A model generated the notes under the pieces. It searched no databases and was not told the origin of the DNA. It was given only the letters and a program-made list of their open reading frames with translations. A stretch of DNA of 50,795 nt. Source: a virus. Location: the UHGV virus genome UHGV-0203461. One strand, written 5' to 3'. The number at the start of each line of letters is the position of its first letter. The first letter of the stretch is position 1. Made by a program: the position numbers and the translations under genes. Below, piece by piece: positions 37 to 50,795 of the stretch.

Positions 37-402
37 ATGATTGGATATAGAATAAAGGAATTAAGAAAAGAAAAAGATATTACTCAAAAAGAACTTGCAA
101 CTTTTTTAGGTCTTACTCCTAAAATGATTTCTTTTTATGAGAAGGAAGAAAGATTTCCTCCACATGACATAATTTTAAAATTATCAGATTTTTTTAATGT
201 ATCTACAGATTATTTGCTTGGAAAGGTCAATGTAAAAAATATAGACAATCTTAGTGAGTTAGAGCTAATTGAAAATCTAAATTTCTCTGATGATATAAAA
301 GAAGCTTTAAAACTAATTAGCGAATTAAGTCCTTCTAGTCAAGAAAAAATGTTCAAAATAGCAAAAGTATTTCTTGAAGAAGAACTTAATGAGAAAAAAT
401 AA
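37..402 (+). CDS. XRE-family HTH transcriptional regulator, cI-like prophage repressor candidate
   Basis: N-terminal XRE helix-turn-helix (IKELRKEKDITQKELATFLGLTPKMISFYEKEE). RBS AAAGGTGG upstream. Divergent from the cro-like gene at the other end of the window. Confidence 0.8.
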   Translation: MIGYRIKELRKEKDITQKELATFLGLTPKMISFYEKEERFPPHDIILKLSDFFNVSTDYLLGKVNVKNIDNLSELELIENLNFSDDIKEALKLISELSPSSQEKMFKIAKVFLEEELNEKK

Positions 403-1026: not shown

Positions 1027-1224
1027 ATGAAATCTTATTCTTCAAGAGAAATTTTGAAAATACTTAATGCAGATGGATGGTATGAAGTAAATTGTGTTGG
1101 TGACCATCATCAATTTAAACATCCTATTAAAAAAGGTAAGGTCACAGTACCTCATCCAAAAAAGGATTTGCCGATTAGAACTGTGAAAAGTATTTTTAAA
1201 CAAGCAGGGATTAATATTAGTTAA
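1027..1224 (+). CDS. hicA: HicA-family mRNA interferase toxin (type II TA)
   Basis: 65 aa. YcfA/HicA-like sequence (ILNADGWYEV...GDHHQFKHP...KDLPIRTVKSIFKQAGI). Immediately followed by hicB. Confidence 0.75.
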   Translation: MKSYSSREILKILNADGWYEVNCVGDHHQFKHPIKKGKVTVPHPKKDLPIRTVKSIFKQAGINIS

Positions 1225-1264
1225 TCCCTCTCTCTCCTTACAAAAACTTTAAGGAGTTGATATA

Positions 1265-1666
1265 ATGAAAAAAGATATATATGTATATCCTGCTATACTA
1301 AGTTATGATGCAGATGGTATCTCTGTAGAATTTCCCGATTTACCAGGTTGTTACACATGTGGAGATACAACAGAAGAAGCCTTGAAAATGGCAAAAGAAG
1401 CCTTAGGATTACATCTGTATGGGATGGAAGATGATGATGACATAATTCCGGATGCAACTACTATAGATAACTTAAATTTAGAGAAAAATCAAATACCAAC
1501 TTTAATAGAGATATATATGCCAATTCACAGAAAAGCTATAGAAAATTACTCTGTTAAAAAGACTCTTACTATTCCCCAATGGCTTAATAGGGAAGCTGAG
1601 AAACATAAGGTTAATTTCTCTCAAATACTTCAAGAAGCTTTAAAAAATCACCTTAACATTCATTAA
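1265..1666 (+). CDS. hicB: HicB-family antitoxin
   Basis: 133 aa. N-terminal HicB/UPF0150 fold signature (YPAILSYDADGISVEFPDLPGCYTCGDTTEEALKMAKEAL) and a C-terminal DNA-binding tail. Downstream partner of hicA. Confidence 0.7.
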   Translation: MKKDIYVYPAILSYDADGISVEFPDLPGCYTCGDTTEEALKMAKEALGLHLYGMEDDDDIIPDATTIDNLNLEKNQIPTLIEIYMPIHRKAIENYSVKKTLTIPQWLNREAEKHKVNFSQILQEALKNHLNIH

Positions 1667-1724: not shown

Positions 1725-2843
1725 ATGAATATCAAATCAGCTTTTATAAGAAAAAGAGGGGAAAAATTTCATGTATATGTGGAGTACATAGAAGAAATGA
1801 CTGGCAAGATAAAACAGAAAAGTTATGGGAGCTATGAAAAGAAAAAGGATGCTGAAAAACATTTAATTGAAATAAAATCTACTATAAATAGTAATAAGTT
1901 TATTACTCCAAGTAAAACCACTCTTGTAGAGAGGTGTTATAAATACATAATGTCAAATGAAAAAAATTGGTCTCCTTATACAGTTATAAATAGGAAATCT
2001 TGGGTTAAGAATTATATAGAACCTTTTTTTAAAGATACAAAACTTATAGATATAAATCCTGTTTTAATTCAAACTTTTATAAATACAACTTTTAATAATT
2101 GTACTTTTAGTAGCTCAAAGATAAGGTATCGTTTTATAAGTTCTGTTCTGAAAGAAGCATATAGATTAAGAGAAATAAATGAAAATCCATGTGATTTTGT
2201 AAAACTTCCTCATAAAGAAAATTCTTCTAAGATTGAAATATATAATAGAGAAGAAGCTTTATTGTTGATAGAAAAACTAAATAATAGTAACATAGAAATA
2301 CCTATTTTACTAATGTTGACATTAGGTTTGCGACTAGGAGAAGCTACTGGACTTAGATGGACTGATGTTGATTTAAATATCGGCTCTGTAAGTGTAAGTC
2401 AAACACTTATATACGCTAATAATAAAATAGAATTTAAAGAACCTAAAACATCAAAATCAAGAAGAACATTGTCAGCTCCTGATGAACTAATAGAAAAACT
2501 TAAGATTGAAAAATTAAGACAAAATAAATTAAAATTACAAGGAATACTTAAAAATGAAAATAATTTAGTTTGTTTAAACAAAGATTATAATCCATTTTTA
2601 CCAGCTACATTAAGAAAGTCTTTTCATAGATTTATTAAAAAAAATAACTTAAAAAACATTAGGATGCATGATTTAAGACATACAAATGCAAGTTTGCTTT
2701 TATTAGGAGGTACTAACATGAAAGTTGTTTCAGAAAGGTTAGGTCATACAGATATACAAATAACTATGAACAGATACTCTCATGTTTTAGAAGAAATGGA
2801 TAAAAAAGCATCTGATAATTTAAGTAAAATATTATTCAAATAA
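1725..2843 (+). CDS. int: tyrosine-type site-specific integrase
   Basis: 372 aa. C-terminal catalytic motifs (HDLRHTNASLLLLGG...RLGHTDIQITMNRYSHV) typical of phage integrases. Confidence 0.9.
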   Translation: MNIKSAFIRKRGEKFHVYVEYIEEMTGKIKQKSYGSYEKKKDAEKHLIEIKSTINSNKFITPSKTTLVERCYKYIMSNEKNWSPYTVINRKSWVKNYIEPFFKDTKLIDINPVLIQTFINTTFNNCTFSSSKIRYRFISSVLKEAYRLREINENPCDFVKLPHKENSSKIEIYNREEALLLIEKLNNSNIEIPILLMLTLGLRLGEATGLRWTDVDLNIGSVSVSQTLIYANNKIEFKEPKTSKSRRTLSAPDELIEKLKIEKLRQNKLKLQGILKNENNLVCLNKDYNPFLPATLRKSFHRFIKKNNLKNIRMHDLRHTNASLLLLGGTNMKVVSERLGHTDIQITMNRYSHVLEEMDKKASDNLSKILFK

Positions 2844-2855
2844 ATGATTACTGGC

Positions 2856-3164
2856 TGTCAGTTAAATGTCAGTTGAACCTAAAAAAATAGGTTTTGTCAG
2901 TTAAATGTCAGTCAGTTAATTTATAATAATTTCTTTTAAATATCGCTAAAACTACACGTTTTAACATTTATTTATACTTATTTATAAGTATTTATTATTA
3001 TACTTTGGAATAGTTCCCAAACGACTTTTAGTGTTTAAAACCATTGATTTCACGGCATTTTCATTTTTTACTTCAATCTTTTTGTCAGTTAAATGTCAGC
3101 AAAACATTTTATCCACAATTTTTATATAACTTTTCCACAGTTTATCCCCAGCTTTATCCACAAA
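2856..3164 (+). repeat. attP-like repeat field downstream of int: 3 copies of TGTCAGTTAAATGTCAG (each holding two TGTCAG half-sites) plus 3 copies of TTTATCC(A/C)CA
   Basis: Exact 17-mers at 2856-2872, 2895-2911 and 3083-3099. TTTATCCACA-like repeats at 3109-3118, 3140-3149 and 3155-3164. Non-coding and AT-rich. Confidence 0.45.
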
Positions 3165-3910: not shown

Positions 3911-4439
3911 TGCTACTTCTATTTCTTTTTTAGATAGAGTAGACTTTTCCCTTCACATGTACTCCATCAACATTAATTCGCCCCTGCGTAATTTACTTTC
4001 TACCTCTTGTCGCTCCATTTATGTCACTTCCTTAATTCGTCTAACTTAAATTAATAATAGGAGCTTTTTAGAACAAAAACTATAGGTAATTTTTACCAAA
4101 TATTCTACTGTTTTAGTTTGTTTTCTTAGAAGAAAAATAACTTTCATATCTATAAAATTATTCAACTTTCAAACTATCCTGTTGAATAATAACTAATTCT
4201 ATTGTATTATTTTAGTTGTAGAATAAAACTAAATCGGCAAAACTAGAGAAATTTAGTGGCATAAATATATATGAACTAAGAATTGTAAAATGAGTTATAA
4301 GTTATATCATCCAGTTATCAAAAACATATACTCTTTTTGTTTTTGTGAAAGTTTTTTAGGTGGCTAATAATATATATACTTAGAGATAAAATAAAATATA
4401 TTTCTAATATTCATAGTTTTATTTTTTCTCAAAATGCGA

Positions 4440-45283: not shown

Positions 45284-45613
45284 CTAAATCACCCCCTTTC
45301 TCTTTTTCATTACATCTCTATCTTTTAGTGCATTTTTCATTACATATTCTTCAAAAGAGATTAAATCTATCCTATATGAATTACCTATAGGAATTACAGT
45401 ATAATGGTTTTGTGCCATTGCTTCCCTTATCATGTTTCTCGCAGTTGCATCTGACACTTTTAAGTACTCACGAAATTCTTTTACTGTAACTAAATCCATC
45501 CTCTTTATTTTTTCTCTATCTAAAAACATCTTGATGATGTCTGTTGTATCATCTCTTTGCATTAATTCTTGTACTAAGTCTTTTGTGTCTATGAATTGTA
45601 ATGCTACACTCAC
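45284..45613 (-). CDS. HTH DNA-binding protein, excisionase/MerR-like (tentative)
   Basis: 109 aa. VTVKEFREYLKVSDATARNMIREA. Confidence 0.35.
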   Translation of the reverse strand: MSVALQFIDTKDLVQELMQRDDTTDIIKMFLDREKIKRMDLVTVKEFREYLKVSDATARNMIREAMAQNHYTVIPIGNSYRIDLISFEEYVMKNALKDRDVMKKRKGVI

Positions 45614-45629
45614 TTTTATCTCACCCTTT

Positions 45630-45827
45630 CTATCTTCCAGCTAGTTTATCTAATGTAACGTCTAAATAGTCAGCTATTTTTATTAATGTATCTATAGTTG
45701 GATTTTTATTTTCTCCTCTTAAAATCGCATATAAATTCCCTGAATCTACGCCTATTTCTTTTGCTAATTTCCATGCTTTTAAATCTCTATCTTTTAAAAT
45801 TTTATTTATGTTGTCATTAATTGCCAT
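45630..45827 (-). CDS. XRE-family HTH regulator
   Basis: 65 aa. LKAWKLAKEIGVDSGNLYAILRGENKNPTIDTLIKIADYLDVTLDKL. Confidence 0.7.
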   Translation of the reverse strand: MAINDNINKILKDRDLKAWKLAKEIGVDSGNLYAILRGENKNPTIDTLIKIADYLDVTLDKLAGR

Positions 45828-46264
45828 TATTTTCCTCCTTTGATATACTATATTTGTAGGATATATCCTATATCTTTTTATGAAAGTTGGTGATATTATG
45901 CAGTTCAGTAAAGATATATTACATACTCTTACTTTAGAAATTCTTAAGGAAAAATATGATTTTAAAAGTTCTTCTGAAGAAGAACTTTTAAAACATTACC
46001 ATGAAATCTTTTTGAAACTTTCAGAAGTCAATAATAGTTTTTCTAAAGGTGATGGTCTCAGTGTCTTTAAACAAATGTAGGTACTAAATTATATTTAAGA
46101 GCTTCTTTGCAAAAATCTAAAATATCTTTTGAGGAAAGGATACTTTGTTCATTTTCATTCAATGTATTAAGTATCCTTTTAGCTATTTGTAACTCTTCTT
46201 TTGATAATATTAATTCCGTTTCATTATTTACATTGTTCACTACACTTTCAAATGAAATTTTCAT

Positions 46265-46459
46265 TTAATTACACACTCCTTTAATTTCGGTATTTTCTGA
46301 ATCACTTTGTTGCTCCAGTTTTTCATACTCAACTTCTTTTGTACATATGCAACATATTTTAGGCTTCAATCCTTTTTTAACTTCTACCTCATTATCAAAC
46401 CCACAATATGGACACTTGCAAAAATATTTTACTCTTGAATCGCTTGTATTATTTTTCAT
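46265..46459 (-). CDS. zinc-ribbon small protein
   Basis: 64 aa. CKCPYCG...CCIC. RBS AGGAGG. Confidence 0.35.
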   Translation of the reverse strand: MKNNTSDSRVKYFCKCPYCGFDNEVEVKKGLKPKICCICTKEVEYEKLEQQSDSENTEIKGVCN

Positions 46460-46517
46460 GTATTTAACCTCCTAGTTAATAATTAATTAAAACAATATAT
46501 TTCAAAATATTCTGTAT

Positions 46518-47156
46518 TTAGTTCTCAAAATAACTCAACTGCTTGTATGGTCTTTCTGACTTTATAACCTTTATACAATCATCTATAATTTGTATTAAAT
46601 TATTAGATGTGTCAAAGTCTATATCTTCCCATTTCTCCACTCCGAGAATTAGGAATAGCCTTGCTTTCACTTGGTTGTATTCTTTATTAGCTTTGTCTAT
46701 ATCCAGTCTATTCTTTATGTATTTAGAATACTGTTGTTTCTTAGAGCATGTTATCTTACACAACTTTTTATATTCTTTTATTGTTCCTTTTAAATCTCCT
46801 ATAGTTCCTGTAAGTTCTGTTATTACATTTTGTTGTGCTTGATATTGACCAGTTTGTCGAATAGTTGGAAGCACTTCATCAAATACCCAACTCTCAAACT
46901 TTTCTGCGTTTGGAAGATTTGAACCTACTATTAATCTGTAAACATCACCCTCAGTTATCAAAGCAATCTTAATACCATTAATTTTAAACCCCTCGTGTTT
47001 CACTACCCCTTTGCAATGTCTTAAAATTGCATCATTGGTATTTTTATAACCTAATGACTTTGCAATATCTTTTCCTACAAAGTAAGGCTTATTATCAATC
47101 TCTGCCATTCTTATTTGTCCAAACTCCATCTTTTCAAATATTTGTAAGTTATTCAT
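46518..47156 (-). CDS. Bro-N-domain antirepressor (start revised to the second ATG, MNNLQIFEKM...)
   Basis: RBS AGGAGG 8 nt upstream of the internal ATG at 47156. Bro-N N-terminus. C-terminal domain shared with 34754-35494. Start overlaps the RHH gene stop. Confidence 0.65.
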   Translation of the reverse strand: MNNLQIFEKMEFGQIRMAEIDNKPYFVGKDIAKSLGYKNTNDAILRHCKGVVKHEGFKINGIKIALITEGDVYRLIVGSNLPNAEKFESWVFDEVLPTIRQTGQYQAQQNVITELTGTIGDLKGTIKEYKKLCKITCSKKQQYSKYIKNRLDIDKANKEYNQVKARLFLILGVEKWEDIDFDTSNNLIQIIDDCIKVIKSERPYKQLSYFEN

Positions 47157-47325
47157 ACTTATCAACCTCCTGTTCATCTTTTAAGTCCTGTAAATCCTCA
47201 AATTCTTTCCATAAGATATTTATTATAAAAGCATTTTTACTTAATCCTTTTCTTTGAGATTGTCTATGTAGCTCTTCATTTAATTCGTCTGGCATTCTAA
47301 CAGTTACTCTCTTCTTTGCCGTCAC
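47149..47325 (-). CDS. ribbon-helix-helix protein, 58 aa (VTAKKRVTVRMPDELNEELHRQSQRKGLSKNAFIINILWKEF...)
   Basis: Absent from the ORF track. GTG start with RBS GGAGGTGG 7 nt upstream. Translationally coupled to the downstream antirepressor. Confidence 0.5.
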   Translation of the reverse strand: MTAKKRVTVRMPDELNEELHRQSQRKGLSKNAFIINILWKEFEDLQDLKDEQEVDKYE

Positions 47326-47342
47326 TTTTGAACCACCTCCTT

Positions 47343-47410
47343 GTTTATTATATTATCATTGCGTCACCTTTGCGTCAACACTTTTTTTGAAATAATTTAC
47401 GTGGTATAAT
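47343..47410. promoter_or_regulatory. divergent promoter region: + strand TTGAAA-N17-TGgTATAAT, - strand TTGACG-N17-TAATAT, with TTGCGTCA direct repeats
   Basis: Direct repeats at 47359-47366 and 47370-47377, spaced 11 bp, overlap the - strand -35 box. Lies between two divergent RHH genes. Confidence 0.5.
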
Positions 47411-47447
47411 AGTGACATCATTTAGACTTAAGGAGGGTGCTATATTT

Positions 47448-47615
47448 ATGCCATCAAAATTACCGAGATACACACTTAGAATAGATAACAATCTACTTGA
47501 AAAAATCAAGTATATAGCTGAAAGTGAAGGTCGTTCTGCCAACAAAGAAATAGAACAATTAATTAAAAAACATGTTGAAAGTTATGAAAAAATAAATGGC
47601 AAAATTAATGTTTAA
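47448..47615 (+). CDS. Arc/CopG-type ribbon-helix-helix protein (55 aa from the ATG at 47448)
   Basis: RBS AGGAGGG 10 nt upstream. YTLRIDNNLLEKIKYIAESEGRSANKEIEQLI. Confidence 0.5.
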   Translation: MPSKLPRYTLRIDNNLLEKIKYIAESEGRSANKEIEQLIKKHVESYEKINGKINV

Positions 47616-47626
47616 GTTAATAAAAA

Positions 47627-47764
47627 TTAAATATTTTTTAAATTCTTGCTAATCACTAATAGTATGTACTCATTTACTGACATACCTTTTTGATTAGCTT
47701 TTTCTTTGCATTTATTATATAATTCTTCTGTAATACTCAAAGTATATTTCTTTTTATTACTCAT
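47627..47764 (-). CDS. ribbon-helix-helix protein, 45 aa (MSNKKKYTLSITEELYNKCKEKANQKGMSVNEYILLVISKNLKNI)
   Basis: Absent from the ORF track. RBS AAGGAAGTGA. Immediately downstream of repeated element B. Confidence 0.4.
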   Translation of the reverse strand: MSNKKKYTLSITEELYNKCKEKANQKGMSVNEYILLVISKNLKNI

Positions 47765-47820
47765 GTAATCACTTCCTTTTCAAAATATTCTGTATTTAGT
47801 TTTCAAAGTGCTATTAATCT

Positions 47821-48633
47821 TTAACCTAACATTGATATTTGATTGTTCTTTTTAAACTTATTAATAAAGTATATTTGTCCCTTACCAGTAATCTTAGGTG
47901 TTTTAGTAATACTTGTATGACCATCTGGATGTACTCTTGTACCTTCTTTTGTTTCTATAACTCCTAAATCTACACTTTTTTGAGTTGGTGTATTGTAATC
48001 CTCACCTTTACGTTTTATTAAGTAACCATTATTTCTTAACCAGTCAAATAATCTATTTTGTCCTGTATCAATTCCATTTTGTCTAAGCAATTTTGCTAAT
48101 TCTCCAACTAGGATTGAATTGTCAGAAGACGCTACCGAATCAGCAAACAGTACTTTTGGTTGTTGTAACTGGATTACCTTATCCTTTTCTTGATTTTCTA
48201 ATTGTAGTTGTTCTTTTTCCTCAACTTCTATTAATAACTGTTGCAATGCTTCTTTGTACGTAGTTGGTAATTTAGGTTGCTGTTCATTTTCTTTTACTCT
48301 AAAATAGTTATTAACCAATTCTCTTTGTACTGTCCAAGCTAAATCATCTGTTAGAGATTTTACTAACATTAGATAACCACTTTCAGTTATTAGAATCCCA
48401 TTTGGAGCAAATTTACTAAAACCATACAACTCCAAGCTTGGTACGATTTTCGTACTGACCTCAAAATAATCAATATTTTCTATAAAGTATTTTTTATTCT
48501 CAGTAAAATTTCTTTTTGCTGTTCCTTCTGCCCTTTCATGAATTAAGTCAATTTCTTTAAATGTTACAACTCTTTCACCTTTAAACTCTTTAACTTGTAA
48601 TTTTTTATCATTTATTAAAACTAAGTTATTCAT
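47821..48633 (-). CDS. antirepressor (ORF6N N-terminal domain, KilAC C-terminal domain)
   Basis: 270 aa. Confidence 0.7.
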   Translation of the reverse strand: MNNLVLINDKKLQVKEFKGERVVTFKEIDLIHERAEGTAKRNFTENKKYFIENIDYFEVSTKIVPSLELYGFSKFAPNGILITESGYLMLVKSLTDDLAWTVQRELVNNYFRVKENEQQPKLPTTYKEALQQLLIEVEEKEQLQLENQEKDKVIQLQQPKVLFADSVASSDNSILVGELAKLLRQNGIDTGQNRLFDWLRNNGYLIKRKGEDYNTPTQKSVDLGVIETKEGTRVHPDGHTSITKTPKITGKGQIYFINKFKKNNQISMLG

Positions 48634-48835
48634 ATATTCCTCCCTCTTGTATTATTTTTAATATATCTACATCCAAAGCCTGAGCTAATTTACATAATGT
48701 ATCTACTTTAGGCATATATTTATCCTTTTCCAAGTCACTAATTGTTGTTTGAGCTATACCTGTGATTTTACTCAGTTCTGATTGTGATAACATATTGTTT
48801 TTTCTATAATATTTAAGTTTATATCCTATTGACAT
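48626..48835 (-). CDS. XRE-family HTH regulator
   Basis: 69 aa. LSQSELSKITGIAQTTISDLEKDKYMPKVDTLCKLAQAL. Confidence 0.7.
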   Translation of the reverse strand: MSIGYKLKYYRKNNMLSQSELSKITGIAQTTISDLEKDKYMPKVDTLCKLAQALDVDILKIIQEGGIYE

Positions 48836-48985
48836 TAACTCACCTGCCTTTTACTAACTATATATCGTTAATTTAATTATATATGTATTTTTATCCCTCG
48901 TCAACGTTTTATCGTTAATTTTTTTCATAAAAATATGTTATTATTGATTTGAACGATTTAACGTTAAAACAAAGGAGGTATTAAA

Positions 48986-49222
48986 ATGGATTTATTAACA
49001 GCAATATCAAAACGTATATTAGATTTATGTAAAGAAAATGATATTACAGTAAACAAGCTTTGCACTTTAGCTGGTGTAACACAATCTACTGTAGATAGCA
49101 TTTTAAAAGGTAAAAGCAAGAATCCTGGTATATGCACTATAAAAAAACTTTGTGATACTTTAGAAATAACAATAATTGATTTTTTTGATAATCCTTTATT
49201 CAAAGATTTAGATATTGATTAA
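48986..49222 (+). CDS. XRE-family HTH regulator
   Basis: 78 aa. ITVNKLCTLAGVTQSTVDSILKGKSKNP. Followed by hairpin CGTCTGC-loop-GCAGGCG. Confidence 0.6.
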   Translation: MDLLTAISKRILDLCKENDITVNKLCTLAGVTQSTVDSILKGKSKNPGICTIKKLCDTLEITIIDFFDNPLFKDLDID

Positions 49223-49371
49223 TACAGAAATTAATATTCAACTTTCGTCTGCTTTTTGGCAGGCGTATTGTTGTTTGCTCTATTTCCATCTAATCACCTC
49301 TTTTGAATATTCTGTATCTATTTCTTAACACATTATCTCAGTACACCATGTTATAATTAACTTAAATTCTA

Positions 49372-49584
49372 ATGAAAGTTGGTGTTATCATGAAGTTTGT
49401 TTATGTTAAGATATTTAATAACTGGATTGATATAACTGATATTGGCTCTATAAATGGCTGTAATGCAATTGAATATATTAATGAAAACCTTGATAAAATG
49501 TACTCTAGTAATTATGTTTCTATAAATTACAAAGATAAAAACTATTGCATTCATCCATCATGTATTCAAATAGTTACAAAATAA
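49372..49584 (+). CDS. hypothetical protein
   Basis: 70 aa. Followed by a hairpin plus T-run at 49596-49630. Confidence 0.3.
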   Translation: MKVGVIMKFVYVKIFNNWIDITDIGSINGCNAIEYINENLDKMYSSNYVSINYKDKNYCIHPSCIQIVTK

Positions 49585-49666
49585 AGTGTTTATCTCTCTT
49601 TAAAAAACTTTTAAGGGAGATATTTTTATTTTATATTTAGTTTTCAAAGTGCTGTTGTGATTTAAC

Positions 49667-50458
49667 TTAATTTTTGCTTAAATCACTTGATATTCCATAT
49701 TTTAAAGCCATATCTTTTACAATAGCAACATACCCCTCTATTAGCTTCTTATCATCTTGTATTACATCTAGATTGTTAACTTTCTCTCTTTTAGATTCAG
49801 ATACACCTTCTTCTGCCATTTTTCTTCTTTTATTAATTAATCTTCTATGCAAATCAACTCCAAATCGCTTATTTAATAATTCATAACTTTCTGTTCTAAG
49901 CATATTTATATGTTCAAAACCACCTTGTTTTTTTGCTATTCTTGCAATTAGTTGATGTGTATTTGTTCTCCAACTATTTGAGTCTAATGAAACTACATCT
50001 TTTATTGTTTCAACCTCTGTCTTTGCTTCTAAAGCAATGCTATTTGCTTGATTAACTTGAAGTCTTAAATCTTTCATTTCTTTTAAACTTTCTATTAATA
50101 CATCTTCTATACAAGTTGGCTTATGTTGCTTAACTTTGAAATATGTTTCTTCTAAGTTATCAAACTGCTCCCAAGCTTTGTCAGTATCCAATATTTTGCA
50201 GTGTCTATTTGCTCCTCTTTCAGTCCAAAGATACATTTTTGAAGTAAATTTTAGGTTTTCATATTCTGTATGAATACCTTTAAAATTTTTTAAATCATCA
50301 CCTTGCAATAAAAAATAATGTTTACCTTCAATAAATCTATCTTTGTTATTGTTAAAATTGTTGCTTATATTTCTTGCATCTGTTTCATATACATCTGCTA
50401 GTTGCTGTGTAGTTAAAACTCTTTCGTTATTTCTTTCTATTACTTGTAAGTTATTCAT
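49667..50458 (-). CDS. ORF6N-domain antirepressor
   Basis: 263 aa. ERVLTTQQLADVYETDARNISNNFNNNKDRFIEGKHYFLL. Confidence 0.65.
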   Translation of the reverse strand: MNNLQVIERNNERVLTTQQLADVYETDARNISNNFNNNKDRFIEGKHYFLLQGDDLKNFKGIHTEYENLKFTSKMYLWTERGANRHCKILDTDKAWEQFDNLEETYFKVKQHKPTCIEDVLIESLKEMKDLRLQVNQANSIALEAKTEVETIKDVVSLDSNSWRTNTHQLIARIAKKQGGFEHINMLRTESYELLNKRFGVDLHRRLINKRRKMAEEGVSESKREKVNNLDVIQDDKKLIEGYVAIVKDMALKYGISSDLSKN

Positions 50459-50687
50459 ATTTTTCAGCTCCTTTTTCTTTAAATGTACTTTTAGTACAGT
50501 TGTTTTTCAAAAAAATATACTCTATTGAAGTATTGAAATAAGCTGCTATTTTTACAGCTGTATTTAGAGACGGTACTCTTTCGCCATTCTCTAAGAAAGC
50601 TATATACCTACTTGTAAGACCTAATTCAGCTCCTAACTGATTTCTACTTAGTCCTTTTTGTATTCTAAAATCTTTTAGTTTATTCAT
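50451..50687 (-). CDS. XRE-family HTH regulator, cro-like
   Basis: 78 aa. LSRNQLGAELGLTSRYIAFLENGERVPSLNTAVKIAAYF. Divergent from the cI-like gene at 37-402 across the window ends. Confidence 0.7.
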   Translation of the reverse strand: MNKLKDFRIQKGLSRNQLGAELGLTSRYIAFLENGERVPSLNTAVKIAAYFNTSIEYIFLKNNCTKSTFKEKGAEKYE

Positions 50688-50714
50688 TTTTTCACCTTCT
50701 TTTACTTTATCTTA

Positions 50715-50743
50715 TGTACTAATAGTACAGTACTATTAGTACA
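50715..50743. promoter_or_regulatory. two adjacent 15-bp near-palindromic operators TGTACTAATAGTACA / AGTACTATTAGTACA in the cro-cI intergenic region; third site TGTACTTTTAGTACA at 50485-50499
   Basis: TGTAC-N5-GTACA dyads seen directly. The third copy precedes the ORF6N antirepressor start. Confidence 0.45.
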
Positions 50744-50795
50744 TTGTCAATAGCTTTTTTAAAAAAAATGAGCTATAATTGATAATTAAGAACTA

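Follow-up and report, generated by a model that had tools for sequence, protein, structure and literature searches.

The window analyzed here is the whole 50,795-nucleotide (nt) stretch of viral DNA listed as UHGV-0203461. The element of interest is a cassette at positions 46518 to 47764 that encodes three small ribbon-helix-helix (RHH) proteins and an antirepressor with a Bro-N domain, in the order RHH45 (- strand), RHH55 (+), RHH58 (-), and Bro-N (-). We propose, with a probability of about 0.6, that this cassette is a secondary immunity module of the P22 immI type, carried by a temperate phage of Clostridioides difficile. In P22 immI, the RHH repressors encoded by mnt and arc and the antisense RNA sar jointly control ant (PMC11016777, PMC2629481), and Pant and Pmnt, a divergent promoter pair that overlaps, are both repressed by Arc (PMC2724298). 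An earlier note on this DNA had described the locus as resembling a miniature bistable switch that gates antirepressor expression and is separate from the cI/cro pair. Its central idea, dedicated RHH-based control of the antirepressor operon, is supported by the conserved gene order, the coupling of RHH58 to Bro-N, the promoter geometry, and the operator arrays, together with a motif that co-varies with one of the RHH proteins. The separation from cI/cro also holds: the main pair straddles the window ends (Table 1), and a second helix-turn-helix (HTH) pair, divergent (HTH69 on the - strand, HTH78 on the +), lies at 48626-49222.

By sequence comparison, RHH55 is a genuine homologue of P22 Arc and Mnt. 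It scored 32.0 bits against the Pfam Arc model (PF03869; cutoff, 20.4), which places it in the Arc/Mnt family, and phmmer against the PDB returned Arc (1arq, E = 6e-5) and Mnt (1mnt, E = 1.8e-3). The alignment to Arc extends over the full length of the protein, with the β-strand SKLPRYTLRI set against SKMPQFNLRW of Arc and AESEGRSANKEIEQ opposite AEENGRSVNSEIYQ. An identical protein, named "Arc family DNA-binding protein," is present on about 990 contigs. RHH58 (14.3 bits) and RHH45 (14.1 bits) both missed the Pfam Arc cutoff. RHH45 fell below every Pfam cutoff; RHH58 matched Pfam HicB (PF05534; 23.8 bits, cutoff 21) at model positions 17-51, which comprise the RHH part only, and other RHH families matched it as well. 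Both proteins were assigned to PHROG 582, "Arc-like repressor" (E = 3e-10 for RHH58 and 2.7e-8 for RHH45). AlphaFold2 models of the two (predicted local distance difference test scores of 86.4 for RHH58 and 89.9 for RHH45) display an extended N terminus followed by two helices; these are models of monomers, and the RHH strand pairs only in the dimer. Their best Foldseek matches were Arc, CopG, ORF56, AtaR, and AmrZ, at template modeling scores of 0.6 to 0.8. Arc and CopG headed the matches of RHH58, which superposes on CopG, and the top 40 or so matches of RHH45 were all RHH proteins. RHH58 also has an R-x-T-x-R β-strand and an acidic C-terminal helix. We conclude that all three small proteins belong to the RHH superfamily, RHH55 by its alignment to Arc and the other two as more distant members. 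RefSeq labels all three genes "Arc-like repressor," and NCBI names RHH58 "HicB family antitoxin" and RHH45 "hypothetical."

The gene inventory of the earlier note stands almost unchanged. The 58-amino-acid (aa) RHH gene with a GTG start is on the - strand, the 55-aa gene is on the + strand, and a 45-aa gene on the - strand converges on it, with 11 nt between the stop codons of RHH55 and RHH45. Only the start of RHH55 needed correction, to an ATG at 47448 instead of 47449. Because this ATG is one base earlier, the region between the divergent genes measures 122 bp (47326-47447) and not 123 bp.

The fourth gene encodes an antirepressor by several measures: a Pfam Bro-N match of 74.8 bits, a match to PHROG 463 (anti-repressor; E = 2.6e-53), and the annotation "antirepressor" in phage CDKM9. 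The sole match of its C-terminal half was phrog_18000, of unknown function, and KilAC is absent; the neighboring ant270 protein combines ORF6N and KilAC domains. The stop codon of RHH58 overlaps the Bro-N ATG by 8 nt as ATGAATAA. This overlap is conserved across diverged phages, in line with the translational coupling put forward in the earlier note. It lies within a 13-nt junction, TATGAATAACTTA, which recurs at 48622-48634 and 50447-50459, the two other joints between a regulator and an antirepressor. In this way RHH58, HTH69, and HTH78b are joined to Bro-N, ORF6N-plus-KilAC, and ORF6N antirepressors, respectively, and the downstream protein begins with MNNL. Judging from these junctions, the phage carries three stacked units of a regulator and a coupled antirepressor. 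Across C. difficile phages, RHH58/59 precedes antirepressors of five domain architectures, which marks the antirepressor as exchangeable cargo behind RHH58.

It is very improbable that RHH58 and Bro-N form a toxin-antitoxin or abortive-infection pair, as could be read from the NCBI name of RHH58 and its HicB score, from weak NCBIfam RelB and BrnA antitoxin matches, and from the gene overlap and the acidic C-terminal helix. The HicB match is confined to the generic RHH segment, and the gene adjacent to RHH58 is Bro-N, not HicA; a genuine HicA/HicB-like pair is found elsewhere in the genome (Table 1). In addition, the partner has a strong antirepressor assignment, and its exchange among five architectures behind the same RHH argues against a specific neutralizing protein pair.

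A 32-nt element, TTTGAAAACTAAATACAGAATATTTTGAAAAG, brackets the segment from RHH45 to Bro-N as a direct repeat, and does likewise in CDKM9 and CDMH1. Another copy in the window is split (49287-49329 and 49620-49655); outside the window, copies lie in loci L001 (5377-5408, 4099-4130, and 3255-3286) and L002, from CDMH1 (4407-4438 and 2999-3030). We considered the element as a promoter or an RNA structure and rejected both, since it shows neither sigma-A geometry nor a stable fold (z = +0.3). Module exchange at this junction, or an unrecognized regulatory function, may explain it.

The earlier note had placed near-consensus promoters on both strands of the region between RHH58 and RHH55. This was confirmed for the leftward promoter, TTGACG-17-TAATAT with a TG upstream of the -10 hexamer. 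For the rightward promoter it was not, as we found an extended -10 element without a -35 hexamer (Table 1), which a two-hexamer promoter scan did not list. A + strand match, TTGAAC-17-TATTAT (47328-47356), would make the two promoters overlap completely. Related loci do not conserve this match, and promoter-like matches are not enriched in the control region (14 found, 18.4 expected), so we took it as a chance match.

Downstream of RHH55, a hairpin followed by a T-rich tract probably ends a monocistronic RHH55 mRNA about 90 nt past the stop codon, although a consensus terminator scan did not call it. Since this putative terminator lies inside RHH45, the RHH55 and RHH45 transcription units converge and overlap at their 3' ends. 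This overlap is the sole antisense relation that we saw. On the - strand, we detected no terminator between the strong early promoter at 48904..48876 and Bro-N, and early leftward transcripts should consequently read through HTH69, ant270, RHH45, the antisense strand of RHH55, RHH58, and Bro-N.

Four operator-like sites, S1 to S4, are distributed over the control region (Table 1). The two direct repeats that the earlier note had placed over the leftward -35 box are indeed there: S3 covers five of the six -35 bases and S2 lies in the spacer. Both are exact copies of TGACGCAA, which occurs exactly twice in 50.8 kb (0.31 expected), with the two copies 11 bp apart. S1, at the RHH58 start codon, and S4, directly after the rightward -10, are weaker copies with a TGAC core. 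The repeat could be a by-product of the promoter, as TTGAC is the -35 consensus, combined with chance, in which case the small RHH proteins would act elsewhere. An 8-mer repeat at an offset of 8 to 22 arose in 4.5% of shuffled sequences (P = 0.045), 10% of the 123-bp tiles of this AT-rich genome contain an equally long short-range repeat, and promoter-like matches are, as noted, not enriched in the region. We nevertheless regard coincidence as the least credible of the explanations considered here. The repeated word is G+C rich and unique to this spot in the genome, and at an offset of 10 to 12 such a repeat arose in 0.8% of shuffles (P = 0.008). Extra copies are present at the start codon and past the opposite -10, and diverged loci have 10- to 12-bp tandem pairs of different words at the same promoter position. 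When the 10- to 12-bp offset repeats in the intergenic regions of 17 cassettes were combined by Fisher's method, P was approximately 1e-7, although these loci are not fully independent.

To place the cassette among its relatives, we compared loci found with RHH55. A search of viral contigs returned 74 loci at 42 to 100% identity, and in a scan of species-representative genomes the family signature was present in 305 of them. With RHH58 and RHH45 as queries, word-indexed homologue searches gave only close C. difficile relatives, and for this reason the distant comparison rests on the RHH55-found loci. In about 17 distinct diverged loci of Firmicutes prophages, the Arc-like gene is flanked by two small RHH genes on the - strand. 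The RHH proteins on the divergent side, including RHH58, form one family with the signature (S/T)KN(A/S)(L/F)I..ILW. Most of those on the convergent side conform to the EQTT(I/L)R(L/I)P type, and the convergent genes abut the 3' end of the Arc-like gene or overlap it by 13 to 44 nt. Among the hosts are C. difficile, Staphylococcus xylosus, and Lachnospiraceae. The S. xylosus genes run cI, whose product has an S24 domain (+), cro (-), the convergent gene (-), arc (+), and RHH (-); in Lachnospiraceae the cassette adjoins an XRE repressor and a large serine recombinase. Given this recurrence, the third RHH gene is not incidental but part of a conserved triple of convergent RHH, Arc-like, and divergent RHH genes. 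A large Oscillospiraceae subfamily of Arc-like proteins (LLRYTLRVDR), which dominates the genome scan, has no flanking RHH genes; this implies that the cassette is not universal for the Arc-like family, and nothing more.

The architecture of the control region is kept in the cassette loci while its sequence drifts. The leftward promoter has a TTGAC-type -35, and 16 of 17 loci have a 17-nt spacer and a TAnnAT -10, the remaining one being a short region that gave no read-out. In the rightward TGnTATAAT, the TATAAT columns are invariant in our alignment, and most loci also have TGn. Usually exactly 26 nt separate the leftward -35 and the rightward -10, and the L098/L032 type has 36 nt, longer by one helical turn; distances were taken by script, and by manual count (26 to 27 nt) for L056, L169, and L159, where the script had mispicked the rightward -10. 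Each locus has its own 7- to 9-bp word at fixed places: as an 11-bp-period tandem over the leftward -35 and spacer, as a single copy or a pair near the ribosome-binding site and start codon of the left gene, and as a tandem pair or palindrome after the rightward -10. The counterpart of S1 is flanked by the Shine-Dalgarno sequence and the start codon, and the S4 position carries a tandem or palindromic locus-specific motif, such as GTTGTCAACATGACAAC in L093 and ATGACGATATAATGACGCA in L169.

Among other C. difficile phages, the synteny is preserved and individual parts are swapped. The cassette of phage phiCDKH01 is the same (92 to 95% identity), with both TTGCGTCA copies intact. The CDMH1/phiCD505 variant carries a different convergent RHH, a 103-aa protein on the + strand, and a different left RHH, followed by a Bro-N antirepressor. 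The 103-aa protein is an apparent tandem double RHH, that is, a single-chain pseudo-dimer, and the candidate operator is a 17-bp palindrome, GACACTnTTTTAnTGTC, present twice in the control region (CDMH1, L002 3861-3963; phiCD505, L004 3931-4050). A perfect TTGACA-17-TATAAT leftward promoter has one copy across its -35 and spacer and the other just downstream. In two IMG/VR C. difficile contigs (L017 and L046), RHH55 and its own promoter half with S4 lie directly upstream of a CDMH1-type cassette.

The comparison also points to the protein that reads the repeats. The repeated word sorts with the β-strand of the Arc-like middle protein and not with the other two RHH proteins. Every locus with PRYTLR(I/M) has three to five TGACG cores and no G[TG]TG[TC]C, and every locus with PH(Y/F)A(L/I)RI has three to six G[TG]TG[TC]C cores and no TGACG. 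The convergent EQTTIRLP type was found in both motif classes. In L017 and L046, where the left partner is replaced, RHH55 retains the right half of the region, including S4. Because the word class follows the Arc-like β-strand, we assign the TGACGCAA array to RHH55 with moderate confidence. The variants GACGCAA and GACGGCA are mixed within single loci. We had also tried to read the difference between the window and L032 (TGACGCAA versus GACGGC) as a change of specificity due to R7K in RHH55, and rejected this since both variants occur in single loci (S1 of the window and S2 of L034).

A different assignment would make the TGACGCAA repeats an autoregulatory operator of RHH58, in the manner of CopG or Arc, and leave RHH55 to regulate only itself or another target. 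RHH genes that lead an operon usually autoregulate at promoter-overlapping sites (CopG, PMC2724298), and RHH58 shares the R-x-T-x-R strand. We think this improbable given how the left protein varies. Within the TGACG class its strand may be KKRVTVRM, KKRLTLRI, KKRLGL(S/A/T)(V/I), or VVRSGLRL, so that TGACG persists with R-G-A, R-G-S, or R-G-R in the left strand. Moreover, L058 (left VVRSGLRLS, middle PRYTLRI) has TGACG sites, and GTTGTC replaces them in L062, where the left strand is alike (RVRSGLRIP) and the middle protein differs (PHYALRI).

The bistability in the earlier note corresponds to a toggle of two repressors, with RHH55 repressing the leftward promoter, RHH58 repressing the RHH55 promoter, and two stable states. 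Such a toggle seems unlikely to us, if somewhat less so than autoregulation by RHH58. In its favor, the back-to-back divergent promoters each have sites and an RHH protein as first product, and P22 Arc does repress Pmnt. Nonetheless, the sites at both promoters share one TGAC core, which sorts with the Arc-like protein alone; we found no motif that follows the RHH58 family; and leftward read-through from upstream, with no - strand terminator found, would express RHH58 regardless of whether the local promoter is active. A single self-regulating repressor, like P22 Mnt, fits the shared core better than two opposed repressors do, and our model does not require bistability. Nor do we see a new kind of switch here: we read the cassette as a Gram-positive variant of the textbook P22 immI system.

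From the layout, folds, homology, promoter and operator arrangement, conservation, and covariation described above, we infer which protein binds where, in which direction it regulates, and what the antirepressor targets. In the proposed immI-type module, RHH55 would play the role of Mnt and be expressed on a short monocistronic mRNA that starts at its own extended -10 promoter. In the prophage, RHH55 dimers would bind the TGAC-core sites cooperatively. Occupancy of S3 and S2 would block the strong leftward promoter and keep RHH58 and the coupled Bro-N off, with S1 at the RHH58 start codon as a third contact, and S4 at +1 of the RHH55 promoter would provide autoregulation. RHH55 might also stimulate its own promoter; this speculation is conceivable because S3 is centered near -44 of a promoter that lacks a -35. 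Upon infection or induction, leftward early transcription would run head-on through the RHH55 unit into RHH58 and Bro-N. RHH45 and RHH58, both on the lytic strand, would probably silence the RHH55 promoter, damp the antirepressor promoter, or both, as Arc does in P22. Convergent transcription would further lower RHH55 once the early operon fires, and the antirepressor would inactivate a non-cleavable XRE-type repressor.

Several observations weigh against this proposal. L017 and L046 lack both RHH58 and the TGACG leftward promoter; with that promoter absent, their RHH55 must have another role there, and this orphan RHH55 might act in trans on other prophages. In other taxa, genes that do not encode antirepressors follow the cassette RHH (Staphylococcus, Lachnospiraceae). 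The repeat at this single locus departs only modestly from chance (P = 0.045 when any short offset is allowed), and S4 (GTGACATCA and TAGAC) and S1 (with a one-base insertion) are imperfect copies. The assignment of the sites to RHH55 is a correlation with a single clear recombinant contrast, L058 versus L062. We found no motif tracking RHH58 or RHH45 and can propose DNA targets for neither; upstream of the convergent RHH gene there is no shared motif, and in most loci this gene directly follows another coding gene. Finally, the sole functional study of a phage that carries this cassette, phiCDKH01, tested only the XRE repressor gp17 and its promoters (PMC11172241).

Table 1. Positions of the cassette features and of the neighboring immunity and integration genes in the window
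Feature	Position	Strand	Remarks
RHH45	47627..47764	-	Convergent RHH; last gene of the upstream early unit HTH69 - ant270 - RHH45
RHH55	47448..47615	+	55 aa; ATG 47448; lysogeny (cI/integrase) strand; "mnt position"
RHH58	47149..47325	-	58 aa; GTG start, AAGGAGG ahead; first gene of the leftward operon ("arc position")
Bro-N antirepressor	46518..47156	-	212 aa; most likely start, ATG 47156
RHH58/Bro-N joint	47145..47157	-	Overlap ATGAATAA within 13-nt junction TATGAATAACTTA
Leftward promoter	47378..47350	-	TTGACG-17-TAATAT, TG upstream; near-consensus
Leftward -35	47373-47378	-	TTGACG
Leftward -10	47350..47358	-	TAATAT, TGa ahead
Rightward promoter	47402..47410	+	Extended -10 TGgTATAAT; no recognizable -35 (TTTTTT in its place)
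S1	47316..47325	-	GTGACGGCAA; imperfect copy including the RHH58 GTG start; about +19 to +28 of the leftward transcript; 42 bp from S2
S2	47359..47366	-	TGACGCAA; leftward promoter spacer
S3	47370..47377	-	TGACGCAA; overlaps the leftward -35 (5/6 bases)
S4	47412..47427	+	GTGACATCATT TAGAC; pair of TGAC-like cores spaced by 11 bp; immediately follows the rightward -10, around +1 of the RHH55 transcript
Hairpin with TTTTTCT	47648..47705	+	Hairpin 47648-47698; -16.3 kcal/mol, z = -3.0; within the antisense RHH45 gene
32-nt element, upstream copy	47776..47807	-	TTTGAAAACTAAATACAGAATATTTTGAAAAG
32-nt element, downstream copy	46498..46529	-	Overlaps the last Bro-N codons
XRE-type repressor candidate (main)	37-402	+	HTH domain only; no S24 peptidase domain
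cro-like gene	50451-50687		Straddles the joined window ends together with the main repressor
HicA/HicB-like pair	1027-1666	+	Lysogeny strand, between repressor and integrase; HicA PF07927, 77 bits; HicB-like PF15919, 63 bits
Tyrosine integrase	1725-2843	+	Arm-DNA-binding domain; followed by three arm-type repeats

The likeness to P22 immI extends over several features. Like immI, the cassette would be a second immunity region apart from the main repressor/Cro pair, and in both a small RHH gene is cotranscribed just ahead of the antirepressor, as RHH58 is with Bro-N. A divergent second RHH gene, a compact region with two promoters, and what look like operator repeats over the antirepressor promoter are likewise present here, and RHH55 is homologous to Arc and Mnt. 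There are also differences. RHH55 occupies the position of mnt but is the size of Arc (55 aa), without the C-terminal oligomerization extension of Mnt; RHH58, in the position of arc, comes from another RHH subfamily; the convergent RHH45 is extra; and the antirepressor is a Bro-N protein. There is no gap between the genes at the arc-ant position, as they overlap, and no sar-like RNA, with no Rfam match in 45500-50795. The candidate operators are 8-bp direct repeats arrayed with an 11-bp period, and additional copies lie at the start codon and at the promoter of the opposite strand. Furthermore, the module lies in an early operon of a Firmicutes myophage, whereas that of P22 is in a late operon. 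In P22-like phages, an exchangeable insert for antirepressor control with high genetic flux has been termed the "ant moron" (PMC2629481). The 32-nt repeat that brackets our cassette and the antirepressor swapped behind the 13-nt junction resemble it, but host, genome position, and flanking sequences differ.

Other systems offer partial parallels. As with CopG at Pcr of pMV158, a minimal RHH protein is encoded by the first gene of an operon whose operator repeats overlap a sigma-A-type promoter; CopG autoregulates, whereas the sites here appear to belong to the divergently encoded Arc-like protein. As at lambda OR (PRM/PR), sites for a repressor encoded on the lysogeny strand would, by analogy, shut a lytic promoter and flank the repressor's own weak promoter; the protein here is an RHH and not an HTH protein, and neither activation nor a Cro-like competitor is in evidence. 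The main repressor without a cleavage domain and the several antirepressor genes recall antirepressor-driven induction of the Gifsy type (PMC3121763), although we found no LexA box in the immunity region; a LexA-box search gave two sites, both outside that region and within chance expectation. In phiCDKH01, which has the same cassette, gp22, the equivalent of RHH55, is listed as a putative regulator (PMC11172241), and a survey of Paenibacillus phages merely lists Arc-like phams shared with phiC2. Our literature search found no functional study of the cassette RHH genes and no description of the module organization or its operators.

The surroundings identify the phage. Over bases 46400-48290, the window shares 99.4% identity with C. 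difficile phages phiC2, phiMMP03, and CDKM9, and its bases 49270-50795 match CDMH1. Joining the window end to its start gave 845 bp with 100% gapless identity to the gp44-gp43 region of CDMH1; on the strength of this match, the window is the complete and circularly closed genome of a mosaic, phiC2/CDMH1-like C. difficile phage. Lysogeny genes are on the + strand, and nearly all others, including the entire early region, are on the - strand.

We also recorded several features around the cassette. Beside a TTGTCA hexamer, positions 50716-50742 form a perfect 27-bp palindrome, GTACTAATAGTAC-A-GTACTATTAGTAC. Just 3' of the integrase gene, the 15-mer GTCAGTTAAATGTCA occurs in three exact copies (0.15 expected; 2857-2871, 2896-2910, and 3084-3098), which are probably arm-type sites of attP. 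The region of the second HTH pair (48836-48985) contains a promoter with 11 of 12 matches, TTGACG-17-TATAAT (48904..48876), and direct repeats containing ATCGTTAATTT at 48856-48874 and 48903-48921, which are likely operators. The segment 49200-49660 is a mosaic scar that holds the remnant start of a CDMH1 gp46-like RHH gene (MEIEQTTIRLP..., ATG 49289, - strand) and an insert of about 300 bp with a 70-aa + strand open reading frame (49372-49584), which splits one copy of the 32-nt element. The segment 45630-46264, further along the early operon, repeats the topology of the cassette: a small + strand open reading frame (45880-46080) without a family match is divergent from an HTH gene (45630-45827, -), and its 3' end overlaps the convergent orf65 (46067-46264, -).

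Every C. difficile phage known so far is temperate, and the maintenance of lysogeny by these phages is little understood (PMC11172241). This is the main obstacle to C. difficile phage therapy and to understanding prophage induction. The proposed second immunity module is testable, as it names a putative repressor (RHH55), its candidate operators (the TGACG array), two promoters, and an antirepressor output. These are direct targets for virulent or non-inducible phage derivatives, and the module could help explain cross talk among the multiple phiC2-like prophages common in clinical strains. The loci also offer natural matched RHH/operator specificities, e.g., PRYTLR with TGACG and PHYALR with GTTGTC. 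More tentatively, the triple of convergent, Arc-like, and divergent RHH genes, together with its bidirectional promoter of fixed geometry and its operator array specific to the protein, may possibly be a portable and self-contained secondary immunity switch, common to prophages and integrative elements across Firmicutes (Clostridioides, Staphylococcus, Lachnospiraceae, Clostridium), that can gate any cargo. In C. difficile the cargo would be interchangeable antirepressors, co-resident phiC2-like prophages whose Arc-like proteins have the same specificity would cross-silence one another's antirepressors, and the lytic-strand RHH proteins would serve as anti-immunity factors aided by obligatory convergent transcription. 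If the proposed immI-type module is real, it would extend the Arc/Mnt/Ant paradigm from P22 to phages of Gram-positive bacteria.

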